A stretch of DNA of 63,152 nucleotides from Nanobdellota archaeon (GCA_018818285.1 JAHIRT010000032.1:1-63152); one strand, 5' to 3'. Positions 31,819 through 62,943 are shown, counted from the first letter of the stretch. The notes: generated by a model not told the origin, from the letters alone. Made by a program: numbers and translations.

Positions 31819-32607
31819 ATGAAGATTTCAGTTATAATCCCAGCATATAATGAAGAAAACAGAATTGCAAGGACATTAAATGAATATGGAAATTTTTTTA
31901 GTAAAAAAAAGAAAAACACCCAAGAATTTTTTGATTTTGAAATTATAGTTGTAGCAAATGCTTGCAAGGACAATACTGTTAGTGTTGCAAAAGAAGTTCA
32001 AAGAAAGCACAAAGAAATAAAAATTTTAGATTTTAAAAAAGGAGGGAAGGGGTTTGCAGTAAAGGAAGGATTTAAAGAAGCCCTGAATTCCAAATCAGAC
32101 TTAATTGGATATGTTGATGCTGATATGGCAACTTCTCCTGATGCTTTTTATGATTTAATAGAAAACATAAGAAATTATGATGGTGTTCTTGCAAGCAGAT
32201 ACATTAAAGGCGCTGTTTTAAATCCAAAACCAACATTTATCCGGAAATGTGCAAGTGTTATTTTCAATTTTTTAGTAAGAAGTCTTTTTTTCATTCCTTA
32301 TAGAGATAGTCAGTGTGGAGCTAAAATTTTTAAAAGAAAAGTTATTGAAAAAGTCCTGCCAAAACTTACTATGTCTCAATGGGCATTTGATATTGATTTG
32401 TTGTATAATGCAAAAAAGTCAGGAGCTAAGATTAAAGAGATTCCAACATTTTGGAGAGAAATGAAAGGAAGCAAGATAAACCTAAAAAAATCAAGCATAC
32501 AAATGTTTCTTGCTGTTATTCAATTGAGAATATTAAATTCAAAACTTAAAAAAAGCTGGAAGTTTTTCAAGCCTTTTGCAGGAATGCTTTACTGGATTGT
32601 GAGATAA
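31819..32607 (+). CDS. family 2 glycosyltransferase (dolichyl-phosphate sugar synthase-like)
   Basis: ISVIIPAYNEENRI, DADMATSP (DxD), and a C-terminal hydrophobic segment. Confidence 0.85.
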   Translation: MKISVIIPAYNEENRIARTLNEYGNFFSKKKKNTQEFFDFEIIVVANACKDNTVSVAKEVQRKHKEIKILDFKKGGKGFAVKEGFKEALNSKSDLIGYVDADMATSPDAFYDLIENIRNYDGVLASRYIKGAVLNPKPTFIRKCASVIFNFLVRSLFFIPYRDSQCGAKIFKRKVIEKVLPKLTMSQWAFDIDLLYNAKKSGAKIKEIPTFWREMKGSKINLKKSSIQMFLAVIQLRILNSKLKKSWKFFKPFAGMLYWIVR

Positions 32608-32610
32608 AGA

Positions 32611-33369
32611 CTAATCTTCTAATGTCCTAATATCCCCACCACAAATTGTATATGTTTTTCCTGTATCTTGATAATCTGAAACAATAGACAATGCTAAATC
32701 TGCAATATCTTTTGGCTGATTTACTCTTCCTGAAGGAATTTTTGCTTCTATTTCCTTTCTTATTTCAGAGTCTTTCAAATAAAGAGTCATGTCTGTTTCT
32801 GTATAACCCGGAGCAATGCAATTTACTCTTATTTTTGGAGCAAGTGTTAAAGATAGACATTTGCTAAGATAAATCATTCCTGATTTTGAAAGTCCATAAG
32901 GAATTCCCTTATTATTTTTTGGTGTTATGCCTGCATCAGAGGCTATATTAATTATTAATCCATTTTCCTGATTTAACATTTGTTTTGCAACAGCTTGAGA
33001 ACAAAAGAACATGCTTTTAAGATTTGTTCCAAGAACTTTATCAAAAGTTTGTGAATCATATTCAAGGAATGCTTTTCTTGGGAAAATTCCAGCATTATTC
33101 ACTAAAATATCAATTCTTCCATATTTGTTGACTATTTTTTGAATCATTGATTCTATTTCTTCAGCATTAGAAACATCTGCCTGAACTAAACAAACTTCTC
33201 TTCCCATGGCTTTAATTTGCTGTTCAACTCCTTTTGCTTGTTTTTCAGAATTGTGATAATTAACAGCTACTTTTGCCCCTTGCTCTGCAAACACTAAAGC
33301 AATTGCTTTTCCAATTCCCTTTGATGCTCCTGTGATTAATGCCACTTTGTTTTCTAATTTTAAGTCCAT
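32611..33369 (-). CDS. short-chain dehydrogenase/reductase (FabG-like)
   Basis: TGASKGIGKA, NNAG, catalytic YGLSK. Confidence 0.88.
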   Translation of the reverse strand: MDLKLENKVALITGASKGIGKAIALVFAEQGAKVAVNYHNSEKQAKGVEQQIKAMGREVCLVQADVSNAEEIESMIQKIVNKYGRIDILVNNAGIFPRKAFLEYDSQTFDKVLGTNLKSMFFCSQAVAKQMLNQENGLIINIASDAGITPKNNKGIPYGLSKSGMIYLSKCLSLTLAPKIRVNCIAPGYTETDMTLYLKDSEIRKEIEAKIPSGRVNQPKDIADLALSIVSDYQDTGKTYTICGGDIRTLED

Positions 33370-33407
33370 TATTTTTGGGGTTTATTTAAGTTTATAAATT
33401 TTACTTA

Positions 33408-34610
33408 TTAGAGGAAATACTCTCCTATTTCTTCTGCAACTTGTAATTGCTCAATTTTTTCAGGATGTTGAATTAAATCTTCAATAAACCAGTTTATGTC
33501 ATTATAAAGACAGGTTACATTTTTGCATTCATTGTAAGCATTGAAATCTTTGATTTTTTCAGCTGTTTTTAGTTTTGTTTTTTTGTAGTTTTCTTCATCA
33601 GCATAAGCATTTTTGTCTCCAATTTTTGCTTTTTCAATATTTCTAAATCCTGGACAAATAAAGGCTCCTAATGGACTTAAAACTCCTCTAAAAAAAATCA
33701 TATGGCAGTTTTTAGGCTGTTTAATATTCCTGAAATTGCCATTTTCCAGAGCTTTTAAGTTATTAGATTCTCTAACTTCAAAACTGTCTGTTTCTAATTT
33801 TTTGGCTTCTTGAATAGATTCTCTGATTTTTCTAATTGTTTCTTGATATTCTTCTGAAGAGTGGATTATTCCAATCAGTTCTGCAGAATTTTCTGGACTT
33901 CTTTCTAAAAAAGGTTTTATTGAAATATAATTAAATCCATTATTTTTTGCTAATCTTGCAGCATCAACAATCTCATCAATGTTTGATATAACTTTCCCAT
34001 CATGAATATTACTCCATGTCACAACATAGGAAAATCCAATTGTCAAATTTTTATGCTTCTTTTTTATTTCATAAACATCTTTACAAATTTTTTTTAAACT
34101 TGTTTCAATTCTTGGATTGTGCATCTTTTGAAATGTTTCTTCTTTTCCAGAATCCAGAGAAAGCCTTATCCAGTCATTATTATCAAATAAATGAGCAATT
34201 TCGCTGATTTTTTCCATATTACTTCCATTTGTAACAATTCCGATTTTGATTCCTTTTTCTTTTAAAAAAATAATTATTTCTCCCAATTTAGGATAAAGTG
34301 TAGGTTCTCCTCCACCAATAAGAATAACTGACTTTAAGCCTTTTTTTGACATTCTATCAAGAGAGTTTAACAAGTTTTCATGTTCAAACATAATTTGTTG
34401 ATTAAGAATATCTAAATCAATACAATGAGTACATCTAAAATTGCAGGCGGTTGTTAAATCAAGATTAATAGAAATTGGAGCAAAATCAGGAAGGTTGCCT
34501 AATATAGTTAAATCTCCATCCTGAATTTTCCTTTGCCATTTAGCATATTCTTTTAATCTATTGATTAAAGAGGGCTGTAATAATTTTCTGCAAAAATCAT
34601 AAACTTTCAC
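33408..34610 (-). CDS. radical SAM protein
   Basis: CNFRCTHC (CxxxCxxC), GGGEP, additional C-terminal Cys residues. It overlaps the upstream nucleotidyltransferase gene by 4 nt. Confidence 0.8.
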   Translation of the reverse strand: MKVYDFCRKLLQPSLINRLKEYAKWQRKIQDGDLTILGNLPDFAPISINLDLTTACNFRCTHCIDLDILNQQIMFEHENLLNSLDRMSKKGLKSVILIGGGEPTLYPKLGEIIIFLKEKGIKIGIVTNGSNMEKISEIAHLFDNNDWIRLSLDSGKEETFQKMHNPRIETSLKKICKDVYEIKKKHKNLTIGFSYVVTWSNIHDGKVISNIDEIVDAARLAKNNGFNYISIKPFLERSPENSAELIGIIHSSEEYQETIRKIRESIQEAKKLETDSFEVRESNNLKALENGNFRNIKQPKNCHMIFFRGVLSPLGAFICPGFRNIEKAKIGDKNAYADEENYKKTKLKTAEKIKDFNAYNECKNVTCLYNDINWFIEDLIQHPEKIEQLQVAEEIGEYFL

Positions 34611-35155
34611 ACTGTTTTTTTTTTATTTTCTTCTCTTATTTCTTCTCTTATTTCTTCTCTTATTTCTTCTCTTATTTTAGAACTGCTAAAAAGTTTTGGG
34701 CCTCCAACAAATCTTATTTTCCCCCCATAGTGCTCAACAGCTTCTTTTTCAGGCAACATATCTATTGTATAGTCAGTCCCTTTAGTATGAAGATGTGGTT
34801 TTAGCAATTTAATCAATTCAACAGGAGTTTTATCTTGCAAAGGCACAACAAAATCAACTGCCTCCATTGCTGCCATAATCATCATGCGCTCGCATTCGTT
34901 TCTAGAAGGCTTGTTCCCCTTATTAAGCTGAACAGAGTCATCTGTATTTACTCCAACAATCAAGACATCACCTAATTCCTTAGCAGAATTTAAATAATCC
35001 ACGTGTCCAGAATGCAACAAATCAAAAACCCCATTTCCAAAGACAATTATTTTTCCTTCTCTCCTCAACCTCTCGATTTCTAAAACAAGCTCCTTAGGGG
35101 TGTCATATATTTTTTTCAATACTCTTTTATTTATTCCTAAAAATTCTGTCCTCAT
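34607..35155 (-). CDS. cytidylyl/adenylyltransferase, RfaE domain II (HldC)-like
   Basis: GNGVFDLLHSGHVDYLNSAKELGDVLIVGVNTDDSV...RP...ERMMIMAAMEAVDFVV...KGTDY closely follows the heptose-1-phosphate adenylyltransferase pattern. The C-terminal tail is a REEI repeat. Confidence 0.8.
   Translation of the reverse strand: MRTEFLGINKRVLKKIYDTPKELVLEIERLRREGKIIVFGNGVFDLLHSGHVDYLNSAKELGDVLIVGVNTDDSVQLNKGNKPSRNECERMMIMAAMEAVDFVVPLQDKTPVELIKLLKPHLHTKGTDYTIDMLPEKEAVEHYGGKIRFVGGPKLFSSSKIREEIREEIREEIREENKKKTV
34625..34676. repeat. 12-bp tandem repeat (atttcttctctt, ~4 copies) encoding (REEI)n at the C-terminus of the nucleotidyltransferase
   Basis: Read directly from the sequence. Three perfect copies plus one imperfect copy, in frame. 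Confidence 0.85.
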
Positions 35156-35276
35156 AGAAATTTATATTTTAAAATCTTTTTAAACATTTATATTTGTTAT
35201 TATATACTACAAGAAAAATAATCAACAATTGATTCACTTTATAAAAGTTTAAAAACAATGTGCTGATTTATAGAAT

Positions 35277-36326
35277 ATGCAGAAGATTTTATTTATATGT
35301 TTGTCTGGAGCAGGTGATGTTTTAATGTCAACACCGCTTGTTAGAGAAATTAGACAAAATTATCCTTGTGCAAAAATTGATTTTTTAGTTATGCAGGGCA
35401 AAGTTGCAAGAGATGTTTTAATAAATAATAAAAACATTGATGACGTAATTTTATTTAATTTTATCAGCGAGGGTTATTGGAAATCATTGTTGTTTTGCAA
35501 TGAAATGAGGAAGAAAAATTATGATTTATCTATAACAACTTACCCTCAAGCAAGAGTTCATTATAGTATTGTTTCTTATTTAATTCATGCAAAGAAAAGA
35601 ATTGGTTTTAATTATGATACTCAAAAATTTAAAATTAATAATATTTTTTTCACAGATGCTATAAATGAAGATTTTTCAAAACATGTTATTGAAAATAATT
35701 TGAATGTCTTGGATATTCTTGGTTTAGAGAAAGAATCAAAAAAAATAAAACTTATTTTTGAATTAACAAAAGAGTCAAGGGAATTTGCAGATAAATATTT
35801 TAAGGAAAACAAAATCAATAAGGCAGTTGTGGTTCATCCTGGTTCTGGAACAACTAAAAATTTTATTTTAAAAAGATGGCCTAAAGAAAGATTTGCTGAA
35901 TTATGCAAGAAAATTGTTAAAAAGAAAAAAGTTAAAATAATTCTTGTTGGTGGACCAGATGAAAATGAGCTAAAAAACTGGATTATTAAAAAATCTGAAT
36001 TAGAAGAGAATAAAGAGATATTCAATTTGCATAAACAAGGAATTGAAAGAGAATCAGGAGTTATGAAAAAGAGCAGTCTTGTTATATCAAATGATGGTGT
36101 AATGGCACACTTAGCAGCTGCTATTGGAACAGAAGTTATTGGAATTTTTGGACCAACTCCTTGGGAACAAACAGGGCCTTATACTGATAGGAAAAAAATA
36201 GTATGCAAAAACAAAGGAGTAAGACTCTGGAAACATGGAGAATGGATAAGCAAAGAACAAGCAGAAACCATGAAAAAAATAAAAGTGGGCGATGTTTATC
36301 AGGCTGTTGATGAAATGTTAAAGTGA
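35277..36326 (+). CDS. family 9 glycosyltransferase (heptosyltransferase-like)
   Basis: KILFICLSGAGDVLMSTPLVREIRQNYPCAKIDFLV and the C-terminal VISNDGVMAHLAAAIG are typical of GT9. Confidence 0.8.
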   Translation: MQKILFICLSGAGDVLMSTPLVREIRQNYPCAKIDFLVMQGKVARDVLINNKNIDDVILFNFISEGYWKSLLFCNEMRKKNYDLSITTYPQARVHYSIVSYLIHAKKRIGFNYDTQKFKINNIFFTDAINEDFSKHVIENNLNVLDILGLEKESKKIKLIFELTKESREFADKYFKENKINKAVVVHPGSGTTKNFILKRWPKERFAELCKKIVKKKKVKIILVGGPDENELKNWIIKKSELEENKEIFNLHKQGIERESGVMKKSSLVISNDGVMAHLAAAIGTEVIGIFGPTPWEQTGPYTDRKKIVCKNKGVRLWKHGEWISKEQAETMKKIKVGDVYQAVDEMLK

Positions 36327-36367
36327 GTATAGAAAATATATAAAAACCTTAAATCTTATTCTTTGAT

Positions 36368-37042
36368 ATGAATCTCAATCCACCAAAATTAGATGAAAGA
36401 TATAAAAGAATTTTAGAGTTTATAGAACCAAGAAAAAATGAAAAAATTCTTGTAATAGGAACAGGAGTTTTCCCAAAAATAGAATATTTTTTGTTTTATG
36501 ATTTTGGTTGTAAAAATATATTTAGTGGCGATATTGACAAGAAAAATATTGAAAATGGAAAAAAAGTTCTTCCGGGATTAGAGTTTTTAGAATTAGATGC
36601 ACAAAAAAAATTTCCATTTAAATGCGGGATTTTTGACAAAATAATATTTACAGAAGTTTTAGAACACTTGAAAAATGAGGATTTTGCATTAAAAGGAATT
36701 AAAAGAGTTTTAAAATCAGATGGAGATCTAATTCTAAGTGTTCCTAAAAAAAGATGGTTTAGTATTTTTTCACCAATATATTGGATTCAACATAAAAGAG
36801 AGTATTCTGAAAATTCTATAAAAAAGGTTTTAGAAAAAAATGGATTTAAGATAAATAAAATAATTGTTGGTGGGGGTATTTATGATTTGTTTAATTTATG
36901 GCTGCATTTAATCTACAAATATGTTTTTAAAAAACTCCATGTAGATAATTTTTTCAAAGAGAAAATAGACAAGTCATGGAAAAAAGAATTTAAAGGAAAA
37001 GGAACTGATATTATTATTAAGGCAAATAAAAAACTTGAATAA
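36368..37042 (+). CDS. class I SAM-dependent methyltransferase
   Basis: ILVIGTGVFP motif I, FDKIIFTEVLEHL, DGDLILSVP. Confidence 0.78.
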   Translation: MNLNPPKLDERYKRILEFIEPRKNEKILVIGTGVFPKIEYFLFYDFGCKNIFSGDIDKKNIENGKKVLPGLEFLELDAQKKFPFKCGIFDKIIFTEVLEHLKNEDFALKGIKRVLKSDGDLILSVPKKRWFSIFSPIYWIQHKREYSENSIKKVLEKNGFKINKIIVGGGIYDLFNLWLHLIYKYVFKKLHVDNFFKEKIDKSWKKEFKGKGTDIIIKANKKLE

Positions 37043-37043
37043 A

Positions 37044-38042
37044 ATGAAACCAATAATAAGTGTGATTATTCCAGTGTATAATGAAGAAAATAGAATAAAA
37101 GATTGTCTTGAGAGCATTTATTCGCAGAATTTTGATGCAAACAAAGTAGAAGTGCTGATAGTTGATGATAATTCAAATGACAAAACATTAGAAATAGTTA
37201 AAAAATTTCCTGTTAAGGTTTTCAAGAATGGAAAAAGAGATTATGATGTTGGAAAAGCTATTGGAATAGAAAATGCAAAAGGAAGGTTTCTTCTTTTTAT
37301 TGATGCAGATAATCGGCTTATTGACAAAACATGGATAACAAGAGCTGTTAATATTCTGGAAAAAGATAATGATATTTTGGGGGTTCAGTCTTGGAAGCTT
37401 TTTTATTCGCCAAAGCATAATCTTGCAACAAGATATCAGGACTTATTTGGAAATACAGACCCTGCTGTTTTTTATCTTAAAAATCAAGACCACTTGCAAG
37501 CTTATGAAAACAAGTGGGAATTGAATGGAGAAATAACTGAAGATAAAAAAGAGTATGTTATTGTAAAATTCAGGGCAAATGAGATTCCAACTATTGGCTC
37601 TCAGGGATTTTTAACAAGAAAAATTTATTTTGAAAAACAAAAAATATTCCAGCATATTGAATTTTTTATAGGTTTGATTGAAAAACAAAAAGATAAAACA
37701 GGAAAAGTTTGTTTTTTAAAAAATGAAGTAGAACATTTGGCATTTAGCAATGTTGGAGATATAACAAAAAAGTTTAAAAGAAATATTGAACATTATTTAA
37801 ACGATGAGAAAAAAGGAAAACAAAAAAGATATTCTTTGAATTTTTTAAAAGTGGTTCTTGCTTTTTTTGTTATGATCACATTAATTGTTCCAATTTATGA
37901 TTCTTTTAAAGGATATTTAAGGAAAAGGGATAATGCATGGTTTTTGCATATTTATTTGAGTTTTATTGTGGCTTGGGTTTATGGATGGAGGATTTTTATT
38001 GAAAAACTCTCACAGCCATTTCTTTCCAAAAATCCCTCTTAA
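37044..38042 (+). CDS. family 2 glycosyltransferase with C-terminal TM segments
   Basis: ISVIIPVYNEENRI, VDDNSND, IDADN. The start is moved from the TTG at 37035 to the ATG at 37044. Confidence 0.85.
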   Translation: MKPIISVIIPVYNEENRIKDCLESIYSQNFDANKVEVLIVDDNSNDKTLEIVKKFPVKVFKNGKRDYDVGKAIGIENAKGRFLLFIDADNRLIDKTWITRAVNILEKDNDILGVQSWKLFYSPKHNLATRYQDLFGNTDPAVFYLKNQDHLQAYENKWELNGEITEDKKEYVIVKFRANEIPTIGSQGFLTRKIYFEKQKIFQHIEFFIGLIEKQKDKTGKVCFLKNEVEHLAFSNVGDITKKFKRNIEHYLNDEKKGKQKRYSLNFLKVVLAFFVMITLIVPIYDSFKGYLRKRDNAWFLHIYLSFIVAWVYGWRIFIEKLSQPFLSKNPS

Positions 38043-39059
38043 AAACTTAGGAATTTTGAAAAAATTATTTGAAGCAAGCTTGTAAGTGTTGCATTTTTTG
38101 CAATTTGGAAGTTTTGAATAATTATTTTTTTTCATATCCTCAACAATACTAAGTCTTTTACTGTTTTTTGAAAATTGCTTGTATAAATCAGTTGTTAAAA
38201 TATTCCCTAAATACAGGGAAGGAATTTTTTCTTTTCCTGAATAAAAACAAGGGTCACAGGGATAAATATCTCCATTTATTTTTATTGCAATTCTCCATAA
38301 AGGCTGAGTGCAAGGATAGCTTTGTGATTGTTTTAATTTATTGCCCTGAAAATAAAAACCTGCTTGATTTGCTATTGAATGGACAAAACATTTATCATTA
38401 TATTTCATTAGTTTTAACCAGTTTTTTATATCTTGTTTAAAGAAATTTGGATTATTTTTGTAATCTAGATATTGGATATAAATTCTTGGAATTTTTTTAT
38501 TTGATTGATTTCTTATTTTAATCAATTCTTTAATATTCTCAATAACTTTTTCATAAACATTAACTCCAATAATTTTTTCATAATCTTTTGGATTGTTTGC
38601 ATTAAGACTTATGATTATTTCATCAACCCCTAAAGAAACAAGTTTTTTAGAAGTTTCTTTATTTAAAAGAATTCCATTTGTTACAAGAACAATTTCTATT
38701 TTTTTTGAGATATTTTTTATTTTTTTAAATAAATCAAACAAACCAATAAACAATAAGGGTTCTCCTAATCCCATTGGAGAAAAATATAATCTTTTTCCAT
38801 TTTCATGAAATTTTTTCATTTCTTGCAGAATTTTATTAATTATCTCTTTATCCATATCACCAATATAAAGATTTTTATTTTTAATTAAAGACTTTCTTGT
38901 GCACATATTGCATATAGCATTGCATTTTGTTGTTAATTCGCAAGAAAAGTTTATTTTGTGATTTTTTAGTTTTAATCTTTCTAAAACCCTATATGGAAGA
39001 GAATGCATTATTCTTTTTTTTAGATTAGGGGATAAAAATTTGCGGATTCTTTTTAACAT
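38010..39059 (-). CDS. radical SAM protein with SPASM/twitch-like Cys-rich C-terminus
   Basis: CNAICNMC cluster, GLGEP, C-terminal CTQP...GDIYPCDPC...CKKC. Confidence 0.8.
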   Translation of the reverse strand: MLKRIRKFLSPNLKKRIMHSLPYRVLERLKLKNHKINFSCELTTKCNAICNMCTRKSLIKNKNLYIGDMDKEIINKILQEMKKFHENGKRLYFSPMGLGEPLLFIGLFDLFKKIKNISKKIEIVLVTNGILLNKETSKKLVSLGVDEIIISLNANNPKDYEKIIGVNVYEKVIENIKELIKIRNQSNKKIPRIYIQYLDYKNNPNFFKQDIKNWLKLMKYNDKCFVHSIANQAGFYFQGNKLKQSQSYPCTQPLWRIAIKINGDIYPCDPCFYSGKEKIPSLYLGNILTTDLYKQFSKNSKRLSIVEDMKKNNYSKLPNCKKCNTYKLASNNFFKIPKFLRGIFGKKWL

Positions 39060-39060
39060 T

Positions 39061-40158: not shown

Positions 40159-40175
40159 ATTATTATAGAAGAACT

Positions 40176-41357: not shown

Positions 41358-41361
41358 TTTA

Positions 41362-42909: not shown

Positions 42910-42996
42910 CTTATTTTTTATTGAATGGAGTATTTATTTCTTTTTATTATCTATTATTTGAGATATGTTTTTAAATCAAAATCCCAAATAACAATT

Positions 42997-43980: not shown

Positions 43981-43990
43981 TTATTTTAAT

Positions 43991-45652: not shown

Positions 45653-45693
45653 AGTTAAGTTAAATAAAAAAGGTTTTTATTTGTTTTGTAAAT

Positions 45694-46572: not shown

Positions 46573-46573
46573 A

Positions 46574-50198: not shown

Positions 50199-50203
50199 TC
50201 AAA

Positions 50204-52302: not shown

Positions 52303-52396
52303 TTTACAAAAAGAGAGAGATAGGTATTTAAAGATTATTGATTACTGCATAAAGCTTACTGGATAATTTTAAAAATGAGTTGTTTTTCTCTTAAAT

Positions 52397-54252: not shown

Positions 54253-54253
54253 A

Positions 54254-55114: not shown

Positions 55115-56580
55115 ATAAAATGACAAAAATATTAATACTTAATCCTCCGACAAAAGAAGGAATTTACATTAACAGAGACCAGATGGGGGGAATGGGGCAG
55201 AGACTTTCATTTGGAAAAAGTCTGCTAACTTCTTTTTTAGGAAAAATGAAAAGTTCTTTTATAAGACAACCTGTGTTTCAGTTAGTTTATGCTGCTACAA
55301 TACTTTCTGAAAGCAATGATGTATTAGTCATAGATTCATTAAATGAAAACTTAAGTTTAAATGATATAATTAAAAAAGCAATAAAATTTTGCCCAGAATA
55401 CACAATTATGGCTGTATCTTCATCTGATATTTTATATGAAAGAGATGTTGTAGCAAAAAAAATAAAAGAGTGCACAAAATCAAAAATAATTACAATAGGA
55501 GACACAATTACAAATTCTCCATCTTTATTTAAAGAGCCATTTGACATTTCAATTACTGGAGAAGTTGAAGGAGTTGTAAAAGATATAATAGATAAAAAAA
55601 AATTAAGCAGAATTAGTGGTATTATTTATATTGAAAAAGGAAAAGCGAAGACAAACAAAAGAAAAGAGCTTTTAAATGAAGAGGAATTAGAAAAAATAAA
55701 ATTTCCAAAATGGGAGATTTTTCCATATAAAAAATACAGGTATTATCCTCTGCTTTATAATGAGCCTGCTGTTTCTATGCTTTCTTCAAGAGGATGTCCA
55801 TATGCTTGCTATTACTGCTCTTATTCTAAAAATGAGGGAGAAAAATTAAGAATGAGAAATGCAAAAAATGTTGTTGATGAAATTGAAAATAACATTAAAA
55901 AATATGGAATTAATGGGATTGTTTTTAGGGATCCTCTTTTTACTGGAAACAGAAAAAGAACAAAAGAAGTCTGCAGATTGATTATTAAAAAAAATCTTAA
56001 TATTGGGTGGGCATGTGAAACAAGGCCAGAATTACTTGATGAGGAAATTTTAAAGGAAATGAGAAATGCGGGATGCAGGGCAATTAATATGGGAATTGAA
56101 AGCATAAATGAAAAAGAGCTAAATTCTGTTGGAAGAAATAAAGTTGATTTAAACAAGCTGAAAAAAATAATTGAGTGTTGCAATAAATTAGGAATTAGAA
56201 CAACTGGTTTTTTTATTTTAGGGCTGCCTGAATCAACAAAAGAATCAATGAATAAAACAATTGAATTCAGTTTAAATTCAGGATTAAATCATGCCGAATA
56301 TAAAATTGCAACTCCTTATCCTGGAACAAAATTAAGGGAAATTGCAATAAAGAATAATTGGCTGAAAAATAATAACATAAAAAATCTTGGAGGATATGAT
56401 GCTGTTATGTGCATAAACAAAGAAATAAGTCCAGAATATATTGATAATTTGTGCAACAATTCATTTAAAAAATTTTATTACAGATTTTCTTGGATTTGGC
56501 AAGAATTAAGAATGGGGGATAATCTTAAAAAAGCTAATTTTTTTGTTAAAACAATATTTAGAGTTATGACGGGCAAATGA
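55111..56580 (+). CDS. B12-binding-domain radical SAM protein
   Basis: N-terminal Rossmann-like module, SRGCPYACYYCS cluster. A GTG start overlaps the upstream stop; an alternative ATG is at 55120. Confidence 0.8.
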   Translation: MNKMTKILILNPPTKEGIYINRDQMGGMGQRLSFGKSLLTSFLGKMKSSFIRQPVFQLVYAATILSESNDVLVIDSLNENLSLNDIIKKAIKFCPEYTIMAVSSSDILYERDVVAKKIKECTKSKIITIGDTITNSPSLFKEPFDISITGEVEGVVKDIIDKKKLSRISGIIYIEKGKAKTNKRKELLNEEELEKIKFPKWEIFPYKKYRYYPLLYNEPAVSMLSSRGCPYACYYCSYSKNEGEKLRMRNAKNVVDEIENNIKKYGINGIVFRDPLFTGNRKRTKEVCRLIIKKNLNIGWACETRPELLDEEILKEMRNAGCRAINMGIESINEKELNSVGRNKVDLNKLKKIIECCNKLGIRTTGFFILGLPESTKESMNKTIEFSLNSGLNHAEYKIATPYPGTKLREIAIKNNWLKNNNIKNLGGYDAVMCINKEISPEYIDNLCNNSFKKFYYRFSWIWQELRMGDNLKKANFFVKTIFRVMTGK

Positions 56581-56627
56581 AAATAGGAAATTTTCAAAAT
56601 TTCATTTTTAAAAAACATAAATGAAAA

Positions 56628-58277
56628 ATGAATAAAAAAACAATTTTTTTGATTATTGGAATCTTATTATCTCATTTGATATTTGTAATTCTGTCTATGA
56701 ATCAGCCATTTCACGGAGATGAAATTGTGTTCTCTGAATCTGCAAAGGGTATTTTAAAAACTGGAAAACCAATATTTGATTATAGTGCTTTTGAACCAAA
56801 TTTTCAGGGTTTGTGGCATATTCCTCTTTACAGTTATTTTGTGGCTTTGTTTGTTTTCTTTTTTGGACAAAGCATTTATTCATTTAGAGCTGTTTCTGCA
56901 TTTTTCAATGTTTTAGTGATTATTTTAGTTTATCTTATTTCAAAAGAGATTTTCAGCAAAGAGAAAAATAAAGAAATTTTGTCTTTAATTGCAATGTTAG
57001 TTTATGCACTTAATCCTTTGACAATACAAAGTTCTGTTGTTATGGATATAGACGGAGGATTGCTTAATTTTGCTGTTTATTTGTTTTTGTATTTTTTTAT
57101 AAGAAAAAAGAGTTTTTTTTATCTTATTCCTTCTTTGCTGTTTGTATTTTTGTCAAAAGAAAGCGGACCAGTAATATTATTTATCAGCTTGATGACATTT
57201 TATGTTCTGACATTAAATTTCAAGAAAATTCCTAAAATATTTCTATTGTTTTTTGTTTCTGGGATTTTGTTTTTAATTATTTTTTTGAGCTATTGCAGTG
57301 CATTTGGATTAAACTTTTTAATGCCTCTGGAGCATAATTTCAAGGGAGGTTCTATAAGTTTTATATCATTAATGGTTTCTGCGTGGTCATTTAAAACATT
57401 TTTTTATTTTTCTGTTCCTTTTTTTGTTTTATCATTTTTTATTCTAAGTTTTATTTTTTATTATATGTTCTTTAAAAACAAGGAATTTAAAAAACAGGAG
57501 TGGAAAGATAACAAAATTCTCCTGCTCAATTTATTTGCAATAGTAACAATTTTTTTGTTTTTTTATTTGGGGGCCAGTGGTTGGGGTTTTCCAAAATATT
57601 ATATAACTGCTCTTCCAGCAATGTCTATATTCATAGTGCATAGGCTTTCAAAAGAAAAAATATTTAAAAAAGAATTTTTTAAAAAGAAATTTGTTTTGCT
57701 TGTTTTAGTTTTTATATTATTGTCTTATTTTTTAGTTTTTATTCCATCTCCATTAATGCCTGAATTTGATTCAACTGCGCAGAATGCAGAAATTGCAAAA
57801 TCAGCAGGGCTAATTGGAAAGAGCTTTTGTTTATATTTTATAATTCCTTTTTTTATTTGTTTGATTATTTTTTATTTGCTTAGATTTAAGCATAAAATTT
57901 TAATTAGCTTGATTTTTCTTAGTTTTTTTATGTTTGTTTATTTGAATTCTCTTCATGCTGTTGTTCCTTATTCAACTTATTATAATTATGGTGATATTGG
58001 GGTTTTAGATGTTGTAGATTATTTTAGGAATAACAGCGTTTCAGCAGGACAAATTGCAACTTATCCTCATTTAGGAAGCTATCTTGGAATGTCTGATTAT
58101 TATGAAATAACATGGAGTTATAATGATGAAAATGATTTTAAGGAAAAAATAATTGATAATACTGAAATAGGGTATATTGTTATATACAAAAGAGATATAG
58201 AAAGAATTGGAGAAAACATGAAGTATTTTAAATTAAAAGAAAAAATAGGAAGTTATTATGTTTTTAGGAGAATATAA
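56628..58277 (+). CDS. ArnT/PMT-like GT-C membrane glycosyltransferase
   Basis: Polytopic protein whose first loop has HGDEIVFSESAKG (acidic motif). The 549-aa architecture is like GT39/GT83. Confidence 0.7.
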   Translation: MNKKTIFLIIGILLSHLIFVILSMNQPFHGDEIVFSESAKGILKTGKPIFDYSAFEPNFQGLWHIPLYSYFVALFVFFFGQSIYSFRAVSAFFNVLVIILVYLISKEIFSKEKNKEILSLIAMLVYALNPLTIQSSVVMDIDGGLLNFAVYLFLYFFIRKKSFFYLIPSLLFVFLSKESGPVILFISLMTFYVLTLNFKKIPKIFLLFFVSGILFLIIFLSYCSAFGLNFLMPLEHNFKGGSISFISLMVSAWSFKTFFYFSVPFFVLSFFILSFIFYYMFFKNKEFKKQEWKDNKILLLNLFAIVTIFLFFYLGASGWGFPKYYITALPAMSIFIVHRLSKEKIFKKEFFKKKFVLLVLVFILLSYFLVFIPSPLMPEFDSTAQNAEIAKSAGLIGKSFCLYFIIPFFICLIIFYLLRFKHKILISLIFLSFFMFVYLNSLHAVVPYSTYYNYGDIGVLDVVDYFRNNSVSAGQIATYPHLGSYLGMSDYYEITWSYNDENDFKEKIIDNTEIGYIVIYKRDIERIGENMKYFKLKEKIGSYYVFRRI

Positions 58278-59110
58278 TGCCCGAGCTTTCAATAATCATT
58301 CCAACATATAATGAAGAAAATGATATCTTCAGCAGTCTTATTAGCTTATCAGAACAAAGTTATAAAAATTTTGAGATTATAATTGTTGATGATGGCTCAA
58401 CTGACAGAACTTTGGAGATTGTTGAAAAATTTAAAGAGCAAAACAAAATAAGCATTAAAATTTTAAAACAATTGCATGGCGGTCCTGGAAAAGCAAGGAA
58501 TTTTGGAGCAAAAAATGCAAAGGGAGAAATTTTGATTTTTATTGATGCTGATATGAGATTTGATAAGGATTATTTGAAAAATTTAATAGAACCAATTTTA
58601 AAAACAAGGGGAATTGGAACAACTCATGAATTAGAGCTTGTTAATAATATTAATAATATCTGGAGCAGATGCTGGGGCAGAGTCAGAGTTAGCAAAGAAG
58701 AGGCAAAAGATGTCAAGATATTCAGGGCAATTAGAAAAAAAGAATTTCTTGAACTTGGAGGTTTTGAGCCAAAATATGGATATGCAGATGACCAAACATT
58801 ATGGTTTAAGTATAAAATAAAGCCAATAGTTGCAAAAAATACTATTTGCTATCATAAAAATCCTGAAACTTTGAAGCAGGTTTTTAAGCAATCAAGATGG
58901 ATTGGAGCAAGCCATGATGCAGGATTAATTAAGTTTGCTATGATGATTATTTTTTTTCCTGTGCTTATTCCAATATTAAGCATTAGAAAATCCTGGAAAA
59001 ACAAAGATTTTTCAATATTTCCTGCAATGATTATATTTATGACGGCAAGATATTTTGGGAATTTAGCAGGATATTACAGAAAGATATTTTGTAAAGAGAA
59101 TATAAAATAA
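58277..59110 (+). CDS. family 2 glycosyltransferase
   Basis: LSIIIPTYNEENDI, VDDGSTDRT, IDADM. Confidence 0.85.
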   Translation: MPELSIIIPTYNEENDIFSSLISLSEQSYKNFEIIIVDDGSTDRTLEIVEKFKEQNKISIKILKQLHGGPGKARNFGAKNAKGEILIFIDADMRFDKDYLKNLIEPILKTRGIGTTHELELVNNINNIWSRCWGRVRVSKEEAKDVKIFRAIRKKEFLELGGFEPKYGYADDQTLWFKYKIKPIVAKNTICYHKNPETLKQVFKQSRWIGASHDAGLIKFAMMIIFFPVLIPILSIRKSWKNKDFSIFPAMIIFMTARYFGNLAGYYRKIFCKENIK

Positions 59111-59143
59111 TGTAAATTTAAATAAATAGGATTGAAAATTTCT

Positions 59144-60748
59144 TTAAGTTTCTATTTTTTTGTATAAAATTTCTTTTATTCTTTTTTTTAATTCCCGCAA
59201 TCCCTGAAGTTTAGAATAATATCTATAACCTAATTTTTGAATAGGACTAACAATAAAAAATCTCTTAAGGCAATGTCTGCACAATGTAAAAAATCCATAA
59301 TCCCATCTGCTGTATATCTCGCAATTTTTATACTCAAGGGGTTCTTTGCAAAAAGGGCAGTCTACTTTAAAATCATATCTTTTATTTTTTCTATGTTTTA
59401 CTGATTTTGGAGTGATATACTTGCAATAATTTCCCATAGCATCTAATACCTCTGTCCTTAATTGTTTTATTTCCTTATCAGTCATATTATCAGTTATATT
59501 CAACCAATGGTCCCTATGGATCTTATTTTTTATAAAATCTAATTTGTCTGTGATTATTCTCTTTTTAAGACAATGCCGGTAGATTTCTGAGTTTGGGTAT
59601 GGCTGAATAAATCCCAAACCTATTTGCCCTTTTGCATTTTTCTTCCACCAATCAAGGGTTTCTTTTGCTGTTTCTTTTGTTTCTGCAACATCTCCAAAAA
59701 TAAAATTACCTACGACACCCATTTTTAATTCTAGTGTTTTGAAAAAAGCATCTTCAATTAATTTTGGAGTGATTGGCTTTCTCATGCTTTTCAAAACTTC
59801 AGGACTCATGCTTTCAAAACCATAACTTAAAACAAGACATCCTGAATCTCGCATCATTTTTAAAACATCTCCATTAACTCTTAATACAGACATTTGAACA
59901 ATCCATCTTAAATCCCAATCAAGTTCTTCCCTGTATTTTTTTATTTTTTTACAAAAATCTTTTAATCTTTTCATGTCTAATGAAAAACATTCAGCATGTA
60001 TAATTAAAACATTTATTTTATATTTTTTAACTACACTTTTTATTTCTTTCATAATGTTATTAATGGTTCTTTCCCTAAATTCTGTATCATGATAGCAAAA
60101 AGTGCAGTGAAATGGACAGCTTCTGCTTGCTAATAAATAATAAGGGCGCGGGAAATCAAAAAAATGAGTTGTATGATGAAGATTGCAGGGAACATTATTT
60201 AAATATTCTTCATATTCAAAAGACCTGTAATCTGGAAATGGAAGTGCATCTAAATTTTGGATAGGTTTGCGAGTTCCTGTAAAAATAGTTTTATCTTCTT
60301 TAAATACAAGCCCTTTTACTTTGCTTAAGTCTCCTTTTTTTTCTAAACAATCTAATAATTCTACAATTGTTTCTTCTCCTTCTCCTATCACAGCAAAATC
60401 TGCTTTTAAATCATCAAAAATCAATTTAGGTTCGCTTGAGATTAATGGCCCTCCTAAAATTATTTTTGGGTTAGTTCTATGGCTTTTTGCTGCAGCGATT
60501 ATTTTCTCTAAATGACCATATCCATAAGCAATTGTTCCTGTGAGAATATAATCATATTTTTTCTTATCAAAAGCTTTATGCAAAATTTCCCTTACAAGCC
60601 CATCATTATGATTTAAATTTAAATAATCTAATTTATATCCTGCTTTTTTTAAAGAAGCACTTATGTAAGCCAAACTTAAAGGAGTAAAATATCTGTAATC
60701 TTTTTTATCTGTAAAAGAAAATCTGGGGGTTATCATTAATAATTCCAT
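59144..60748 (-). CDS. B12-binding-domain radical SAM protein with C-terminal zinc-ribbon-like motif
   Basis: N-terminal Rossmann-like module (ILGGPL), SRSCPFHCTFC cluster, C-terminal CPFCKE...CRHC. Confidence 0.8.
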   Translation of the reverse strand: MELLMITPRFSFTDKKDYRYFTPLSLAYISASLKKAGYKLDYLNLNHNDGLVREILHKAFDKKKYDYILTGTIAYGYGHLEKIIAAAKSHRTNPKIILGGPLISSEPKLIFDDLKADFAVIGEGEETIVELLDCLEKKGDLSKVKGLVFKEDKTIFTGTRKPIQNLDALPFPDYRSFEYEEYLNNVPCNLHHTTHFFDFPRPYYLLASRSCPFHCTFCYHDTEFRERTINNIMKEIKSVVKKYKINVLIIHAECFSLDMKRLKDFCKKIKKYREELDWDLRWIVQMSVLRVNGDVLKMMRDSGCLVLSYGFESMSPEVLKSMRKPITPKLIEDAFFKTLELKMGVVGNFIFGDVAETKETAKETLDWWKKNAKGQIGLGFIQPYPNSEIYRHCLKKRIITDKLDFIKNKIHRDHWLNITDNMTDKEIKQLRTEVLDAMGNYCKYITPKSVKHRKNKRYDFKVDCPFCKEPLEYKNCEIYSRWDYGFFTLCRHCLKRFFIVSPIQKLGYRYYSKLQGLRELKKRIKEILYKKIET

Positions 60749-60784
60749 TTTACCTGTAATTTGATATTTTTTGCATTTTTTAAA

Positions 60785-62104
60785 TTAAAATCCATGTTTT
60801 TCTAAAATATGAGCATCTTCAGTTTCTTTTCTTGTTTTTTCTTCAAATTTAATATGATTAAGAATTAAATTTTTTAGTTTTTCAGAAATTTCTTTGTCAG
60901 AATTTATTATATTTTCCTTTTCTTTTGGGTCATTTTTTAAATTAAAGAGTTCATCTTTTCCGTTTTGTTTATGAATATATTTATAATCTCCATGAATAAT
61001 TGCAATTCCTTGGATAGTTAGATCATATTTCAAATTTTCAATGCCTGAAACAAATCTTCCATCTCTTTTTCTTGCATCTTCACTAAAAAAATACTTTCTT
61101 TTAAATTTAAGCAAACTCTCGCCAAAAAAACTTTCTGGTTTTTTAATTTTGAGGATATCCAGAATTGTTGGAGATAAATCTAAAAAACTAACTGGAGTGC
61201 TGATTGTTTTTGGTTCTATTTCATTACCAAGAATCATTAAAGGAACATGAATATTTTCTTCATAAAAATCAGGTGTATGTCCAAAAAAACCTTTTTCATA
61301 AAGCATCTTTCCATGGTCGCCAAAAACAATTAAATAAGTATTATCCAATAAATTATCTTCTTTAAGTTTCTTAATAAATTCATCAATATATTTATCTGTT
61401 CTGTTTAAATCAAAGGCATATAAATTTCTGATTGTTTTAATCTCTTGCTCATTAAGTTCTTCTTTTGTTTTAAGAAGATTGCAATTTGCATTTATTAATT
61501 CTTCTGTAGGAGCACCTTCACAATAAGGTTCGTGGGAGCCTTCTAAATGTATGTAAATAAAAAGTTTTTCTTTTTTGTTTTCTTTAATAAATTCCAAGGC
61601 ATTTTTTAATTGATTTTTATCATTTTCTCTGCCTTTTGCTTTTTCAATATTTTTCTTTAAATATAACCGCCTATAAAATTCTCTGGCTTTTGGAAATGAC
61701 TCACCAATCTTTGTTTTAATTTTCTCTGATAGGGATTTATTTGGTGCTCCTAAAACACAAAGAAATTTATCAAATCCCTTATCAAAACCAAAAAATGGTG
61801 ATAACCACCCACCCATAACAAATGCTCCTGTTTTGTAATTATATGTTTTTAATAATTTTGCTATTGTAATTGAATCAGAAGAAATAGCAATACTATCATT
61901 ACACATTAAAGGATAGGAGGAAGTAAACAAACCTTTAACTGCTGGGGGGCTCCAAGGACCTAAAGAATAAGCTTTATTAAAATACATCCCTTTTTTAGAA
62001 AGATTATACAAACAAGGAGTTATTTTTTTTTCTAAAAAATCATTTCTAAAACCATCAACAACAAGCATTATAATATTTTTCATATTACATGAATATTTTT
62101 TCAA
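60785..62104 (-). CDS. alkaline-phosphatase-superfamily protein (sulfatase/phosphodiesterase-like)
   Basis: IIMLVVDGFRNDF metal-site motif, nucleophile-region WSPPAVKGLFTSSYP (not CxPxR), distal FGDHG. Confidence 0.7.
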   Translation of the reverse strand: MKKYSCNMKNIIMLVVDGFRNDFLEKKITPCLYNLSKKGMYFNKAYSLGPWSPPAVKGLFTSSYPLMCNDSIAISSDSITIAKLLKTYNYKTGAFVMGGWLSPFFGFDKGFDKFLCVLGAPNKSLSEKIKTKIGESFPKAREFYRRLYLKKNIEKAKGRENDKNQLKNALEFIKENKKEKLFIYIHLEGSHEPYCEGAPTEELINANCNLLKTKEELNEQEIKTIRNLYAFDLNRTDKYIDEFIKKLKEDNLLDNTYLIVFGDHGKMLYEKGFFGHTPDFYEENIHVPLMILGNEIEPKTISTPVSFLDLSPTILDILKIKKPESFFGESLLKFKRKYFFSEDARKRDGRFVSGIENLKYDLTIQGIAIIHGDYKYIHKQNGKDELFNLKNDPKEKENIINSDKEISEKLKNLILNHIKFEEKTRKETEDAHILEKHGF

Positions 62105-62181
62105 TTTAAAAAGATATCTCTCTTATACAGAGGGTTTCAATATAACAAAGTTTAAATACATTTCTTTTTAAAATTAAGTAT

Positions 62182-62943
62182 ATGGCAAAAGATTTTACAA
62201 AAAAAAGAATAGGTGTATGTGAAGAATTAATGAAACCTGAAATTAAGCAGTATTTAGAATTGCCTTTGGATGAAAAAGTAAAGAAAACACTGGAAATAAT
62301 AAAAGAAGCTCTTGAAAAGTATCCAAAAGCCGGATTAGGATTTAGTGGTGGAACAGATAGTTTAGTTTTATTACATATTGCCTTGCCAATTTGTCCTCCA
62401 GATATGCCAATTATTTTTGTGAATACAGGGCATCAATTTCCAGAAACTTATAAGTTTATAGAGAAAATAAAAAAAGAATGGAATTTAAAAAATTTTCAGG
62501 AAGTTAAACCAGAAGAAGACAAAGTAAATAAATTTAAAGAAGAAGTTGGTTTTAAAACAGCTGAATTTACTGAAAAATGCTGTGAATATCATAAAATAAA
62601 TCCTTTAAAAAAAGCAATTGAAGATTTTAAATTAGATGCTTTTATTGCTGGTATTAGGGGAGTTGAGCATGAAGAAAGAGCTAAGGAAATATTTTTTTCT
62701 CCAAGAAAAAATCCAGACCATATAAGAGTACATCCTCTTTTATTTTGGAAATCAGAAGATGTTTTGGAATATGTTAAAAAAGGGGGAATTAAATGCAATC
62801 CATTATATGCGCAGGGATACACTTCTTTGGGTTGTGTAGAGTGCACAGAAAAAAACATTGACCCAAATGCACATGAAAGAGCTGGTAGGGGTGTTGTAAG
62901 AGAAGAAGTAATGGAAAGACTAAGAGAATTAGGATATACTTAA
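62182..62943 (+). CDS. PAPS/APS reductase-family (PP-loop) protein
   Basis: PP-loop FSGGTDSLVLLH, YTSLGCVECT and ERAGRG near the C-terminus as in CysH-type enzymes. Confidence 0.75.
   Translation: MAKDFTKKRIGVCEELMKPEIKQYLELPLDEKVKKTLEIIKEALEKYPKAGLGFSGGTDSLVLLHIALPICPPDMPIIFVNTGHQFPETYKFIEKIKKEWNLKNFQEVKPEEDKVNKFKEEVGFKTAEFTEKCCEYHKINPLKKAIEDFKLDAFIAGIRGVEHEERAKEIFFSPRKNPDHIRVHPLLFWKSEDVLEYVKKGGIKCNPLYAQGYTSLGCVECTEKNIDPNAHERAGRGVVREEVMERLRELGYT

Follow-up and report, generated by a model that had tools for sequence, protein, structure and literature searches.

Three-component glycosylation systems, of which GtrA/GtrB/GtrC, CsbB/YfhO, ArnC/ArnT, PgfS/PgfM, DPM1/PMT and the polyprenyl-phosphoribose system are described examples, share a signature, a family 2 glycosyltransferase (GT2) of the GtrB or dolichol-phosphate-mannose synthase (DPMS) type encoded beside a glycosyltransferase of the GT-C type, and in such systems auxiliary enzymes (epimerases) diversify the lipid-linked donor before transfer (PMC11127046). 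The same small GT2 beside a GT-C was found, as several pairs in one locus, in a 63,152-nt stretch of DNA from a Nanobdellota archaeon (GCA_018818285.1, JAHIRT010000032.1:1-63152; hereafter the window), where 27 genes lie back to back across positions 31819-62943 and encode 12 glycosyltransferase domains and seven radical S-adenosylmethionine (rSAM) proteins. Unlike the systems described so far, this island belongs to an archaeon and inserts an rSAM gene, usually together with a short-chain dehydrogenase/reductase (SDR), between the GT2 and the GT-C. We interpret it, with a probability somewhat under 0.6, as a chromosomal cell-surface glycan super-locus of Nanoarchaeota (Woese- and Pacearchaeota-type DPANN) built of cassettes that join sugar activation or transfer to dedicated rSAM tailoring; most probably it serves to tailor, by radical chemistry, sugars linked to nucleotides or to polyprenyl phosphate before they are transferred to the cell surface.

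Other described pathways share parts of this arrangement. Sugar-tailoring rSAMs of antibiotic pathways, among them DesII, BtrN, BlsE and the B12-dependent methylases of the GenK/GenD1 type, occur as one or two per bacterial secondary-metabolite cluster; the island encodes the same classes, with weak matches to DesII, BtrN and BlsE, but here the distinct families number seven to eight and the setting is the primary envelope locus of a small-genome archaeon. Mycobacteria have a pathway for decaprenyl-phosphoryl-arabinose (UbiA-type synthase, DprE1/DprE2, Emb/Aft) in which an oxidase/dehydratase and an SDR reductase tailor, by redox chemistry, a sugar linked to polyprenyl phosphate that GT-C transferases then use; its first tailoring enzyme is a flavoenzyme, whereas in the island it would be an rSAM. 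As for the Agl clusters of N-glycosylation, no STT3 match was found in the 27 genes, and the AglJ and AglG models reached only 37-51 bits, which is below threshold. The open-access literature and bioRxiv yielded no description of rSAM-rich glycan loci in DPANN, nor of an rSAM combined with polyprenyl phosphate and a GT-C. The parts, namely glycan loci, GT2 and GT-C systems and sugar-tailoring rSAMs, are known; their combination, with several distinct rSAM families as conserved cassette members in a primary envelope-glycan locus of small-genome archaea, is unfamiliar.

A glycan island dense in rSAM genes

An open reading frame (ORF) listing, with all ORFs from 31819 to 62943 scanned against Pfam, returned, at the same coordinates, the inventory that an earlier reading of the sequence by itself (the original prediction) had given: five GT2 genes (with left-hand coordinates 31819, 37035, 45694, 53545 and 58277), three GT4 (40176, 48315 and 52397), one GT9 (35277), three GT-C of the PMT_2 type (41362, 43991 and 56628, the last below the gathering cutoff), two S-adenosylmethionine-dependent methyltransferases, two SDRs, one DUF362 protein and seven rSAMs. 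The GT4 that had been read as fused to a nucleotidyltransferase indeed combines NTP_transferase and Glycos_transf_1 domains (48315). The three remaining genes encode a nucleotidyltransferase resembling RfaE domain II (34607), a sulfatase-family protein (60785) and a PAPS-reductase-family protein (62182), and every gene of the block other than the rSAMs is, by predicted family, one for activating, transferring or tailoring sugars. The rSAMs, numbered here rSAM1 to rSAM7 in order of position (33408, 38010, 46574, 50204, 51187, 55111 and 59144), all carry the CxxxCxxC motif.

The start and content of the block agree with the original prediction, but the end does not: on a 136.9-kb metagenomic contig (ena:ERZ27247128:k141_613749), where its continuation was observed, the island runs at least 7 kb past the window. 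Found beyond the window end (L001 17830-21470; L038 2588-9858) were a GT8, a UDP-galactopyranose mutase (GLF), two small ORFs, a 272-aa protein, an eighth rSAM (B12-type, 456 aa) and a Wzx-like Polysacc_synt flippase. A DPANN host, also proposed earlier, is borne out by an archaeal RNase P RNA, the small subunit of replication factor C and TYW1, all present in the window, and by identical NCBI proteins labelled 'Nanoarchaeota archaeon'; FtsZ and ribosomal protein L11 are encoded there as well. The G+C content is uniform across the window (26-30%), and the island therefore looks native. Horizontal acquisition of the island was considered and rejected, as this composition gives no sign of it. 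Inside the island, an Rfam scan turned up neither riboswitches nor other RNA elements.

By domain content the seven rSAMs fall into several types. The proteins rSAM3 and rSAM7 carry B12-binding domains (54.9 and 60.0 bits; gathering cutoff 32.1; Radical_SAM also above gathering) and are predicted to be cobalamin-type (class B) enzymes, an assignment made at the level of domains, with no curated subfamily cutoff reached. SPASM/twitch domains were assigned to rSAM2, rSAM4 and rSAM5 (SPASM 25.2, 26.9 and 38.7 bits; gathering cutoff 21.5), and rSAM1 has a plain core with a Cys-rich C-terminal part. Sequence searches of the Protein Data Bank (PDB) with all seven gave one strong match, that of rSAM6 to AprD4; those of the other rSAMs were weak and included BtrN, viperin-like enzymes, TokK, SkfB, BlsE and MgmA.

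Could unrelated housekeeping rSAMs, acting on tRNA, in cofactor synthesis or in enzyme activation, have come to lie among the glycan genes of a compact genome by coincidence? A genuine housekeeping rSAM, TYW1 (29682-30647), does lie just outside the island, and short intergenic distances are common in gene-dense DPANN genomes. When the seven were scanned against the curated NCBIfam cutoffs, however, none reached any of them: their best scores were 75-194 bits where the best-scoring models have cutoffs of 180-650, and the highest scores for housekeeping models were MoaA 65 bits (cutoff 284), RimO 32 (357), HemN 30 (325), PflA 37 (232) and TYW1 43 (318). Since no curated cutoff was reached, identity with MiaB/RimO, HemN/HemW, MoaA, PflA/NrdG or TYW1 is excluded, in keeping with the original prediction. 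The enrichment is also unlikely to be due to chance, as rSAMs make up seven of the 27 island genes but, in the window's other half, one (TYW1) of about 33 (Fisher p = 0.012); against a genome-wide rSAM frequency of 2%, a background that is our own assumption, the binomial p is about 8e-7. Pairwise identities among the seven do not exceed about 25%, and they therefore represent seven families rather than recent duplicates. Finally, the same pairings of rSAMs with glycosyltransferases recur, rearranged, in many genomes, and that of rSAM1 in a bacterial locus too. Coincidental co-location is thus largely refuted, and we regard it as very improbable.

Gene spacing in the island is as tight as had been proposed for rSAM-glycosyltransferase operons, with ten same-strand junctions between -8 and +4 nt: rSAM1/nucleotidyltransferase (-4), methyltransferase/GT2 (-8), rSAM2/DUF362 (+1), GT4/GT-C (+4), GT2_c/rSAM3 (+1), rSAM4/rSAM5 (-4), GT4/GT2 (-7), GT2/SDR (+1), SDR/rSAM6 (-4) and GT-C/GT2 (-1). 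To judge by this spacing, genes of the island may be translationally coupled. On opposite strands, the convergent genes of a GT2 (GT2_b, 37035-38042, +) and rSAM2 (38010-39059, -) share 33 nt at their 3' ends.

For a view across genomes, 30 loci from species-representative genomes and three long contigs were fetched, and their ORFs were compared with the proteins of the window. The conserved linkage of rSAMs to glycosyltransferases that had been expected in related genomes was present in the neighborhoods of orthologues of rSAM1, rSAM2, rSAM3, rSAM5 and rSAM6; rSAM4 and rSAM7 are taken up below. Four or five of the island's rSAM families are conserved across many genomes, the others are variable, and the island is modular. 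In related loci of the Woese- and Pacearchaeota type, stretches of 17-21 kb hold three to seven rSAMs, with GT2, GT4 and PMT_2 genes in between them.

The rSAM6 cassette

The six-gene operon at 52397-59110 (cassette E, all on the + strand) begins with a GT4 (GT4_b, 52397-53551; Glycos_transf_1 119 bits), followed by a small GT2 resembling polyprenyl-phosphate sugar synthases (GT2_d, 53545-54252) and by an NAD(P) oxidoreductase of the extended-SDR type (SDR_epi, 54254-55114; Epimerase 69 bits, motifs TGATSYLG and YGESK), the gene of which overlaps by 4 nt that of rSAM6 (55111-56580; Radical_SAM 85 bits). Next is GTC_c (56628-58277), a divergent, GT-C-like polytopic membrane protein with about 10 predicted transmembrane segments, which scored 23.6 bits with PMT_2 against a gathering cutoff of 26.1 and whose N-terminal first-loop sequence 'QPFHGDE' aligns with 'QPLWWDE' of GTC_b, a GT-C elsewhere in the island. 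The last gene encodes another GT2 (GT2_e, 58277-59110; Glycos_transf_2 117 bits), of which an orthologue was found in one related locus (L035, 190 bits). The best PDB match of GT2_d was the dolichol-phosphate-mannose synthase of P. furiosus (5mlz, E 2e-15, residues 1-202), with GtrB (5ekp) and ArnC as further matches, and a DAD motif is present. Its weak, near-full-length NCBIfam matches to PgfS, PpgS and the Halo dolichyl-phosphate hexose transferase are all below the equivalog cutoffs and therefore indicate family-level similarity rather than prove a function. Because a GT2 of the GtrB/DPMS type beside a GT-C is the signature of three-component glycosylation systems, we take cassette E to resemble a system of that kind.

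The association of these genes is conserved. Among the 120 best matches listed for rSAM6, about 75 are orthologues at 40-70% identity, and the few that have a source name come from metagenome-assembled genomes (MAGs) of Woesearchaeota or Nanoarchaeota. In all 17 archaeal loci a homologue of SDR_epi (65-165 bits) adjoins the rSAM6 orthologue or lies no more than two genes away, and 13 of the 17 have a small GT2 within the cassette (about 235 aa, homologous to the one at 53545 or the one at 31819). In 15 of 18 related loci the gene directly beside the cassette encodes a polytopic membrane protein (440-760 aa, 7-14 predicted transmembrane segments); of 17 polytopic partners, including the window's own, ten match PMT_2, and YfhO and PTPS_related have two matches each and GT22 one, all of which we take to be GT-C-type families. 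In one locus (L005) all four cassette genes overlap by 4 nt. Gene order and orientation in the cassette differ between genomes, a variability more readily explained by selection on the linkage than by descent from one ancestral arrangement.

Structural comparison points to a sugar dehydratase as the closest solved relative of rSAM6. In the PDB sequence search it matched AprD4 (6fd2) with E 8e-41, and the AlphaFold2 model, which is of good quality (pLDDT 88, pTM 0.89), had AprD4 as its top Foldseek match over the full length, including the N-terminal Rossmann-like domain (TMq 0.76, TMt 0.82, E 4e-28); TsrM, at a TM score of 0.65, and the other B12-type rSAMs were well behind AprD4. Among NCBIfam models, HpnJ (TIGR03471) scored 194 bits in a nearly full-length alignment (cutoff 577.6) and AprD4 (NF033070) 169 bits over the core only (equivalog cutoff 500). 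AprD4 is a radical-SAM 1,2-diol dehydratase that acts on a sugar and needs the NADPH reductase AprD3 for deoxygenation (PMC5461906; PMC7941887). Like AprD4, rSAM6 has an NAD(P)-dependent reductase partner encoded next door, and since this constant SDR neighbor mirrors the AprD4/AprD3 pair, dehydration followed by reduction is proposed. SDR_epi differs from AprD3 in being of the extended-SDR type, the two being likened by position beside the rSAM only, and rSAM6 lies in a GT2/GT-C surface cassette rather than in an aminoglycoside cluster like that of AprD4/AprD3, which carry out the C3'-deoxygenation for apramycin.

A pathway for cassette E can be outlined on this basis. GT2_d, resembling DPMS and GtrB, would load a hexose onto polyprenyl (dolichyl) phosphate; the AprD4-like rSAM6 would then abstract a sugar hydrogen and dehydrate the vicinal diol; SDR_epi would reduce the resulting ketone, for a net deoxygenation or a related redox isomerization; and the GT-C, working on the outer face of the membrane, would pass the tailored sugar on to a glycan or protein of the cell surface. 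Here and in the cassettes described below, the substrates, the type of chemistry (deoxygenation, C-methylation or epimerization), the order of steps and the acceptor are proposed from distant similarity.

The similarity to HpnJ raises the most serious rival explanation, that the island remodels lipid head groups or membrane lipids. The rSAMs would then act on glycolipids or isoprenoids, by ring contraction to a cyclitol as in HpnJ and calditol synthase (Cds) or by chain methylation through a B12-type rSAM, and the glycosyltransferases would build head groups on lipids scavenged from a host. HpnJ, which follows the GT2 HpnI, and calditol synthase have been proposed to contract the ring of a lipid-linked sugar (PMC13459092). 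The island likewise has an HpnJ-like rSAM beside a GT2, and HpnJ, the chemistry of which, like that of Cds, is proposed to take place on a lipid-bound hexose, is the best NCBIfam model of rSAM6. Three further matches are in the same direction: GT2_c, the GT2 next to rSAM3, matches Glyco_transf_21, which is of the ceramide-glucosyltransferase type; GT2_e has weak HpnI and HpnB matches; and the top NCBIfam match of rSAM3 is named 'lipid biosynthesis B12-binding/radical SAM protein' (91 bits). Distant Myxococcales relatives of rSAM6, moreover, form a bicistron with a GT2 and have no GT-C. Every one of the supporting scores is far under its curated cutoff, however, and the solved structure closest to rSAM6 is AprD4 and no lipid enzyme. 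The cassette has an SDR and a GT-C in place of an HpnK-type deacetylase, none of the hopanoid genes looked for (shc, hpnH, hpnI, hpnK) was found in the island or the related loci, and genes for lipid-core biosynthesis were absent from the Pfam scans of the island. The constant SDR partner suits dehydration and reduction better than ring contraction, and a GT-C is present in nearly all cassettes, which implies that a lipid-linked sugar is the donor and not the end product. We consider lipid remodeling unlikely as an account of the island, and keep to the tailoring of sugars destined for the cell surface.

The Myxococcales relatives come from Myxococcales/Polyangiales MAGs (L019-L034) and are 26-32% identical to rSAM6. 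Most are followed by a GT2-like ORF, which in several loci is about 255 aa long and overlaps the rSAM gene by 4 nt. In the one such locus scanned with Pfam (L020), the rSAM and GT2 bicistron had no SDR or GT-C nearby. This pair of genes may be an older two-gene core in bacteria.

Other cassettes and the weighing of the evidence

Cassette A (32611-36326) differs in that it appears to use a nucleotide-activated sugar. An operon on the - strand encodes a sugar-phosphate nucleotidyltransferase resembling RfaE domain II (34607-35155; CTP_transf_like 58 bits), rSAM1 (33408-34610, 400 aa; Radical_SAM 75.6 bits, motif CNFRCTHC) and, as its last gene, a classical SDR (32611-33369; adh_short 196 bits), and a GT9 of the heptosyltransferase family lies beside it on the + strand (35277-36326; Glyco_transf_9 109 bits). 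The rSAM1 family is large, with 2373 matches at about 50% identity from Planctomycetota, Pseudomonadota and Nanoarchaeota; some members have a HAD (phosphatase) domain fused to them. Locus L043 repeats the gene set of cassette A in the order GT9, CTP_transf_like, rSAM1, adh_short and PMT_2, with the adh_short orthologue (252 bits) immediately after that of rSAM1 and a nucleotidyltransferase orthologue that scores 184 bits. In a bacterial genome of 6.45 Mb (L044, 7001-10048) a relative of rSAM1 stands beside a GT9 and a cytidylyltransferase-like gene. The rSAM1 cassette is thus uncharacterized and cross-domain, being found in archaea and in the one bacterial locus examined.

The AlphaFold2 model of rSAM1 (pLDDT 89) had DesII, BlsE, viperin and MoaA among its top Foldseek matches, at TM scores of about 0.5-0.6; the first three of these are enzymes of nucleotide sugars and nucleotides. 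Five extra invariant cysteines (C175, C301, C318, C361 and C366) suggest an auxiliary cluster, and rSAM1 is a probable modifier of a nucleotide-activated sugar. The nucleotidyltransferase scored 155 bits with TIGR02199 (rfaE_dom_II, cutoff 181.5), and no gene for a GmhA-type SIS protein, a GHMP kinase or a HAD phosphatase was found in the island. In the scheme we propose, the nucleotidyltransferase would activate a sugar phosphate, rSAM1 and the classical SDR would remodel the nucleotide sugar, and the GT9 would transfer the remodeled sugar in the cytoplasm; judged by these families, the most likely role of cassette A is to make and transfer a radical-tailored nucleotide sugar.

Cassette C (43991-48112, - strand) repeats the pairing of GT2 and GT-C, with a cobalamin-type rSAM. 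It consists of rSAM3 (46574-48112; B12-binding 54.9 bits, Radical_SAM 57 bits), GT2_c (45694-46572, 292 aa; Pfam Glyco_tranf_2_3, GT21-like) and their PMT_2-type partner GTC_b (43991-45652; PMT_2 86 bits). Full-length relatives of rSAM3 at 70-77% identity are found in more than 120 protein clusters of Nanoarchaeota and Pacearchaeota. All three contexts examined (L039, L040 and L041) are glycan clusters in which the orthologue is joined by a GT2 of about 295 aa, a PMT_2 protein and another two to six rSAMs. These three loci, and L043 as well, encode orthologues of GT2_c (250-334 bits) and of GTC_b (113-165 bits). Two of the three contexts (L039 and L041) include heptose-type nucleotide-sugar genes (SIS, GHMP kinase, HAD and NTP_transferase-epimerase), and in two of the three a GT4 is immediately upstream. 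Cassette C would follow the same logic of GT2 and GT-C as cassette E, with rSAM3 probably acting as a C-methylase, our default guess for a protein of this type.

The Pacearchaeota contig L040 also links rSAM3 to rSAM5 (51187-52302, -; SPASM/twitch, Radical_SAM 37.8 bits), which in public gene calls is 344 aa long and starts at 52221. There, a 655-bit orthologue of rSAM5 lies directly upstream of the rSAM3 orthologue; a second orthologue (322 bits) was found in L035. Beside the pair, L040 encodes PAP2, a 2-hydroxyacid dehydrogenase, two epimerases and UbiA (1028-5443), a set that is reminiscent of pathways for polyprenyl-phosphoribose or -arabinose, that is, lipid-linked pentofuranose donors. 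In pathways of that kind, auxiliary epimerases tailor the donor before transfer by a GT-C (PMC11127046).

Together with rSAM2 and rSAM4 (50204-51190, -; Radical_SAM 75 bits), rSAM5 bears on another alternative, that these SPASM-type enzymes in particular crosslink or modify a secreted protein or peptide, such as an S-layer protein, a pilin or a peptide made on the ribosome and modified after translation (RiPP), which is then glycosylated. The SPASM scores of all three are above the gathering cutoff, SkfB, a sactipeptide maturase (5wgg/5why), SuiB, PapB and WgkB-type peptide maturases are among the best matches of rSAM4 and rSAM1 in NCBIfam, the PDB and fold comparison, and large, probable surface proteins are encoded upstream of the island (14324-16840 and 19292-21286). 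Yet no candidate precursor was found when all intergenic gaps, none longer than 202 nt, were searched, the only ORFs in them being implausible ones of 21-71 aa in the 202-nt divergent promoter region. Pfam scans of the island showed no genes for leader-peptide binding, proteases or export, and rSAM2, rSAM4 and rSAM5 all score below the curated maturase cutoffs. SPASM/twitch rSAMs include carbohydrate enzymes, for example BtrN and BlsE, and both of these are among the matches of the island's rSAMs, the conserved partners of which are glycosyltransferases, SDRs and nucleotidyltransferases rather than peptides. Peptide or protein maturation therefore seems improbable to us as the business of this island. 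In a locus for cell-surface glycans, rSAM2, rSAM4, rSAM5 and rSAM7 would add further tailoring steps.

Several observations weigh against the interpretation of the locus as a set of radical sugar-tailoring cassettes. SPASM-type rSAMs such as rSAM2, rSAM4 and rSAM5 are most often peptide maturases, and the fold matches of rSAM1 are modest, with the RiPP enzymes SuiB and SkfB scoring similarly to the sugar enzymes. As for rSAM6, its identity to AprD4 in the structural alignment is 21%, it fails the curated cutoffs of both AprD4 and HpnJ, and the sequence fits action of rSAM6 and SDR_epi either on the sugar once it is lipid-linked or, upstream of the GT2, on a nucleotide sugar. In what may be a further departure from the three-component systems, no flippase of the GtrA, MATE or Wzx type was recognized inside the island's cassettes, the nearest Wzx-like Polysacc_synt gene being about 6 kb past the window end. 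The density of rSAM genes in 21 related loci, 53 in 375 kb or, after subtraction of the anchors, 32 (0.85 per 10 kb), is biased upward because every locus was anchored on an rSAM. No close relatives of rSAM4 or rSAM7 were present in the fetched loci, and no homologue search was made for either.

A bolder form of the proposal, which we put forward only tentatively, is that the rSAMs act directly on polyprenyl-phosphate-linked monosaccharides, between a GtrB/DPMS-like GT2 and a GT-C, in what could be called 'four-component' glycosylation. Such systems might make deoxy, C-methyl or carbocyclic sugars, might be used widely and repeatedly in DPANN of the Woese- and Pacearchaeota type, and would involve at least four uncharacterized, conserved rSAM families, with that of rSAM1 shared with Planctomycetota and Pseudomonadota. 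If the lipid-linked donor is indeed what is tailored, the three-component paradigm would be extended to radical chemistry. DPANN archaea depend on other cells or are attached to them, and next to nothing is known of their surface chemistry; a large, conserved investment in oxygen-sensitive and partly cobalamin-dependent rSAMs in an envelope-glycan locus implies unusual sugars, which may mediate host recognition or protection. For enzymology, the locus offers several conserved, uncharacterized rSAM families with partners (GT2, SDR, GT-C, nucleotidyltransferase and GT9) that make their substrates guessable and their reactions testable in vitro.

Variable genes and surroundings of the island

The rest of the island includes genes that appear to be its variable part, namely rSAM4, rSAM7 and the genes for the DUF362, sulfatase-like and PAPS-reductase-like proteins, the last three of which had no close counterpart in the fetched related loci. 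The family of rSAM2 (38010-39059, -; Radical_SAM 63.5 bits, motif CNAICNMC) is small, counting 33 representatives at E<1e-30. Its closest relative (59% identity) is the first rSAM in the gene order GT4, rSAM, SDR, 593-aa protein, methyltransferase, PMT_2 and B12 rSAM; a second relative is found only on contigs of about 1.2-1.4 kb, and a metagenome scan for further relatives gave one locus only, at 23% identity. Its best PDB sequence match was BtrN (30 bits). One nucleotide away is the gene for a DUF362 protein fused to a ferredoxin with two [4Fe-4S] clusters (39061-40158, -; DUF362 174 bits, Fer4 47 bits), which may supply electrons, with rSAM2 as the candidate recipient; the pairing of the two was not seen in the fetched related loci.

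At the other end of the window, the B12-binding-domain protein rSAM7 (59144-60748, -; Radical_SAM 56.7 bits) had MgmA (9ccb), AprD4 and CysS as its best PDB sequence matches (34-44 bits), and a scan of viral contigs gave no match. Adjacent to it is the gene for a sulfatase-family protein of the alkaline-phosphatase superfamily (60785-62104, -; Sulfatase PF00884, 135.6 bits). The C/S-x-P-x-R formylglycine motif is absent throughout this protein, for which a phospho- or sulfo-transferase or a hydrolase of the superfamily is a likelier identity than a classical sulfatase. The idea that rSAM7 or one of the SPASM rSAMs is an anaerobic maturase of the adjacent sulfatase was rejected, given that the target has no such motif and rSAM7 is of the B12 type. 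A PAPS-reductase-family gene (62182-62943, +; PAPS_reduct 161.6 bits) is the last in the window.

The remaining genes encode transferases. On the + strand these are a small, soluble GT2 (GT2_a, 31819-32607; Glycos_transf_2 81 bits) that resembles DPMS, GtrB and PgfS, a methyltransferase (MT_a, 36368-37042; Methyltransf_11 42.5 bits), GT2_b (37035-38042; Glycos_transf_2 94 bits), which has a C-terminal hydrophobic segment with one predicted transmembrane helix near residue 266, a second methyltransferase (MT_b, 42925-43980; Methyltransf_23 78 bits) and the fusion of a sugar-1-phosphate nucleotidyltransferase to a GT4 (48315-50198; NTP_transferase 113 bits, Glycos_transf_1 66 bits). On the - strand are GT4_a (40176-41357; Glycos_transf_1 91 bits) and the PMT_2-type GTC_a (41362-42909; PMT_2 74.6 bits, about 10 predicted transmembrane segments). 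GT2_a is a paralogue of GT2_d (37.5% identity over 224 aa), with weak PgfS and ArnC matches of its own. GTC_a and GTC_b are 54% identical over 502 aa, which points to a recent tandem duplication, with the opposite-strand methyltransferase gene between the two copies.

Some further features were noted outside the island. Two related glycan islands (L040 9777-12038 and L043 3095-5344) share a block, absent from the window, in which a QueC-like ATPase gene and a small ORF are grouped with genes for a GT2 and a nucleoside 2-deoxyribosyltransferase-like protein. Directly upstream of the island, a 184-aa protein (30799-31353, +) has a Sigma-70 region 4 helix-turn-helix domain (48 bits) and may regulate it. 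Of the two large proteins encoded farther upstream, that at 14324-16840 (+, 838 aa) has no Pfam match and that at 19292-21286 (-, 664 aa) has CARDB and Ig-like domains; both may be surface or S-layer proteins, and hence candidate acceptors of the glycan. The archaeal RNase P RNA is at 7059-7442 (+; Rfam RF00373, 96 bits), and an ORF that overlaps it (7116-7409, -) is probably spurious. The window has tRNA genes for Phe-GAA (7905-7998, +), Pro-TGG (23708-23793, -) and Ser-GGA (25-107, -), of which tRNA-Phe (94 nt) and tRNA-Pro (86 nt) are above the usual length and may hold introns.

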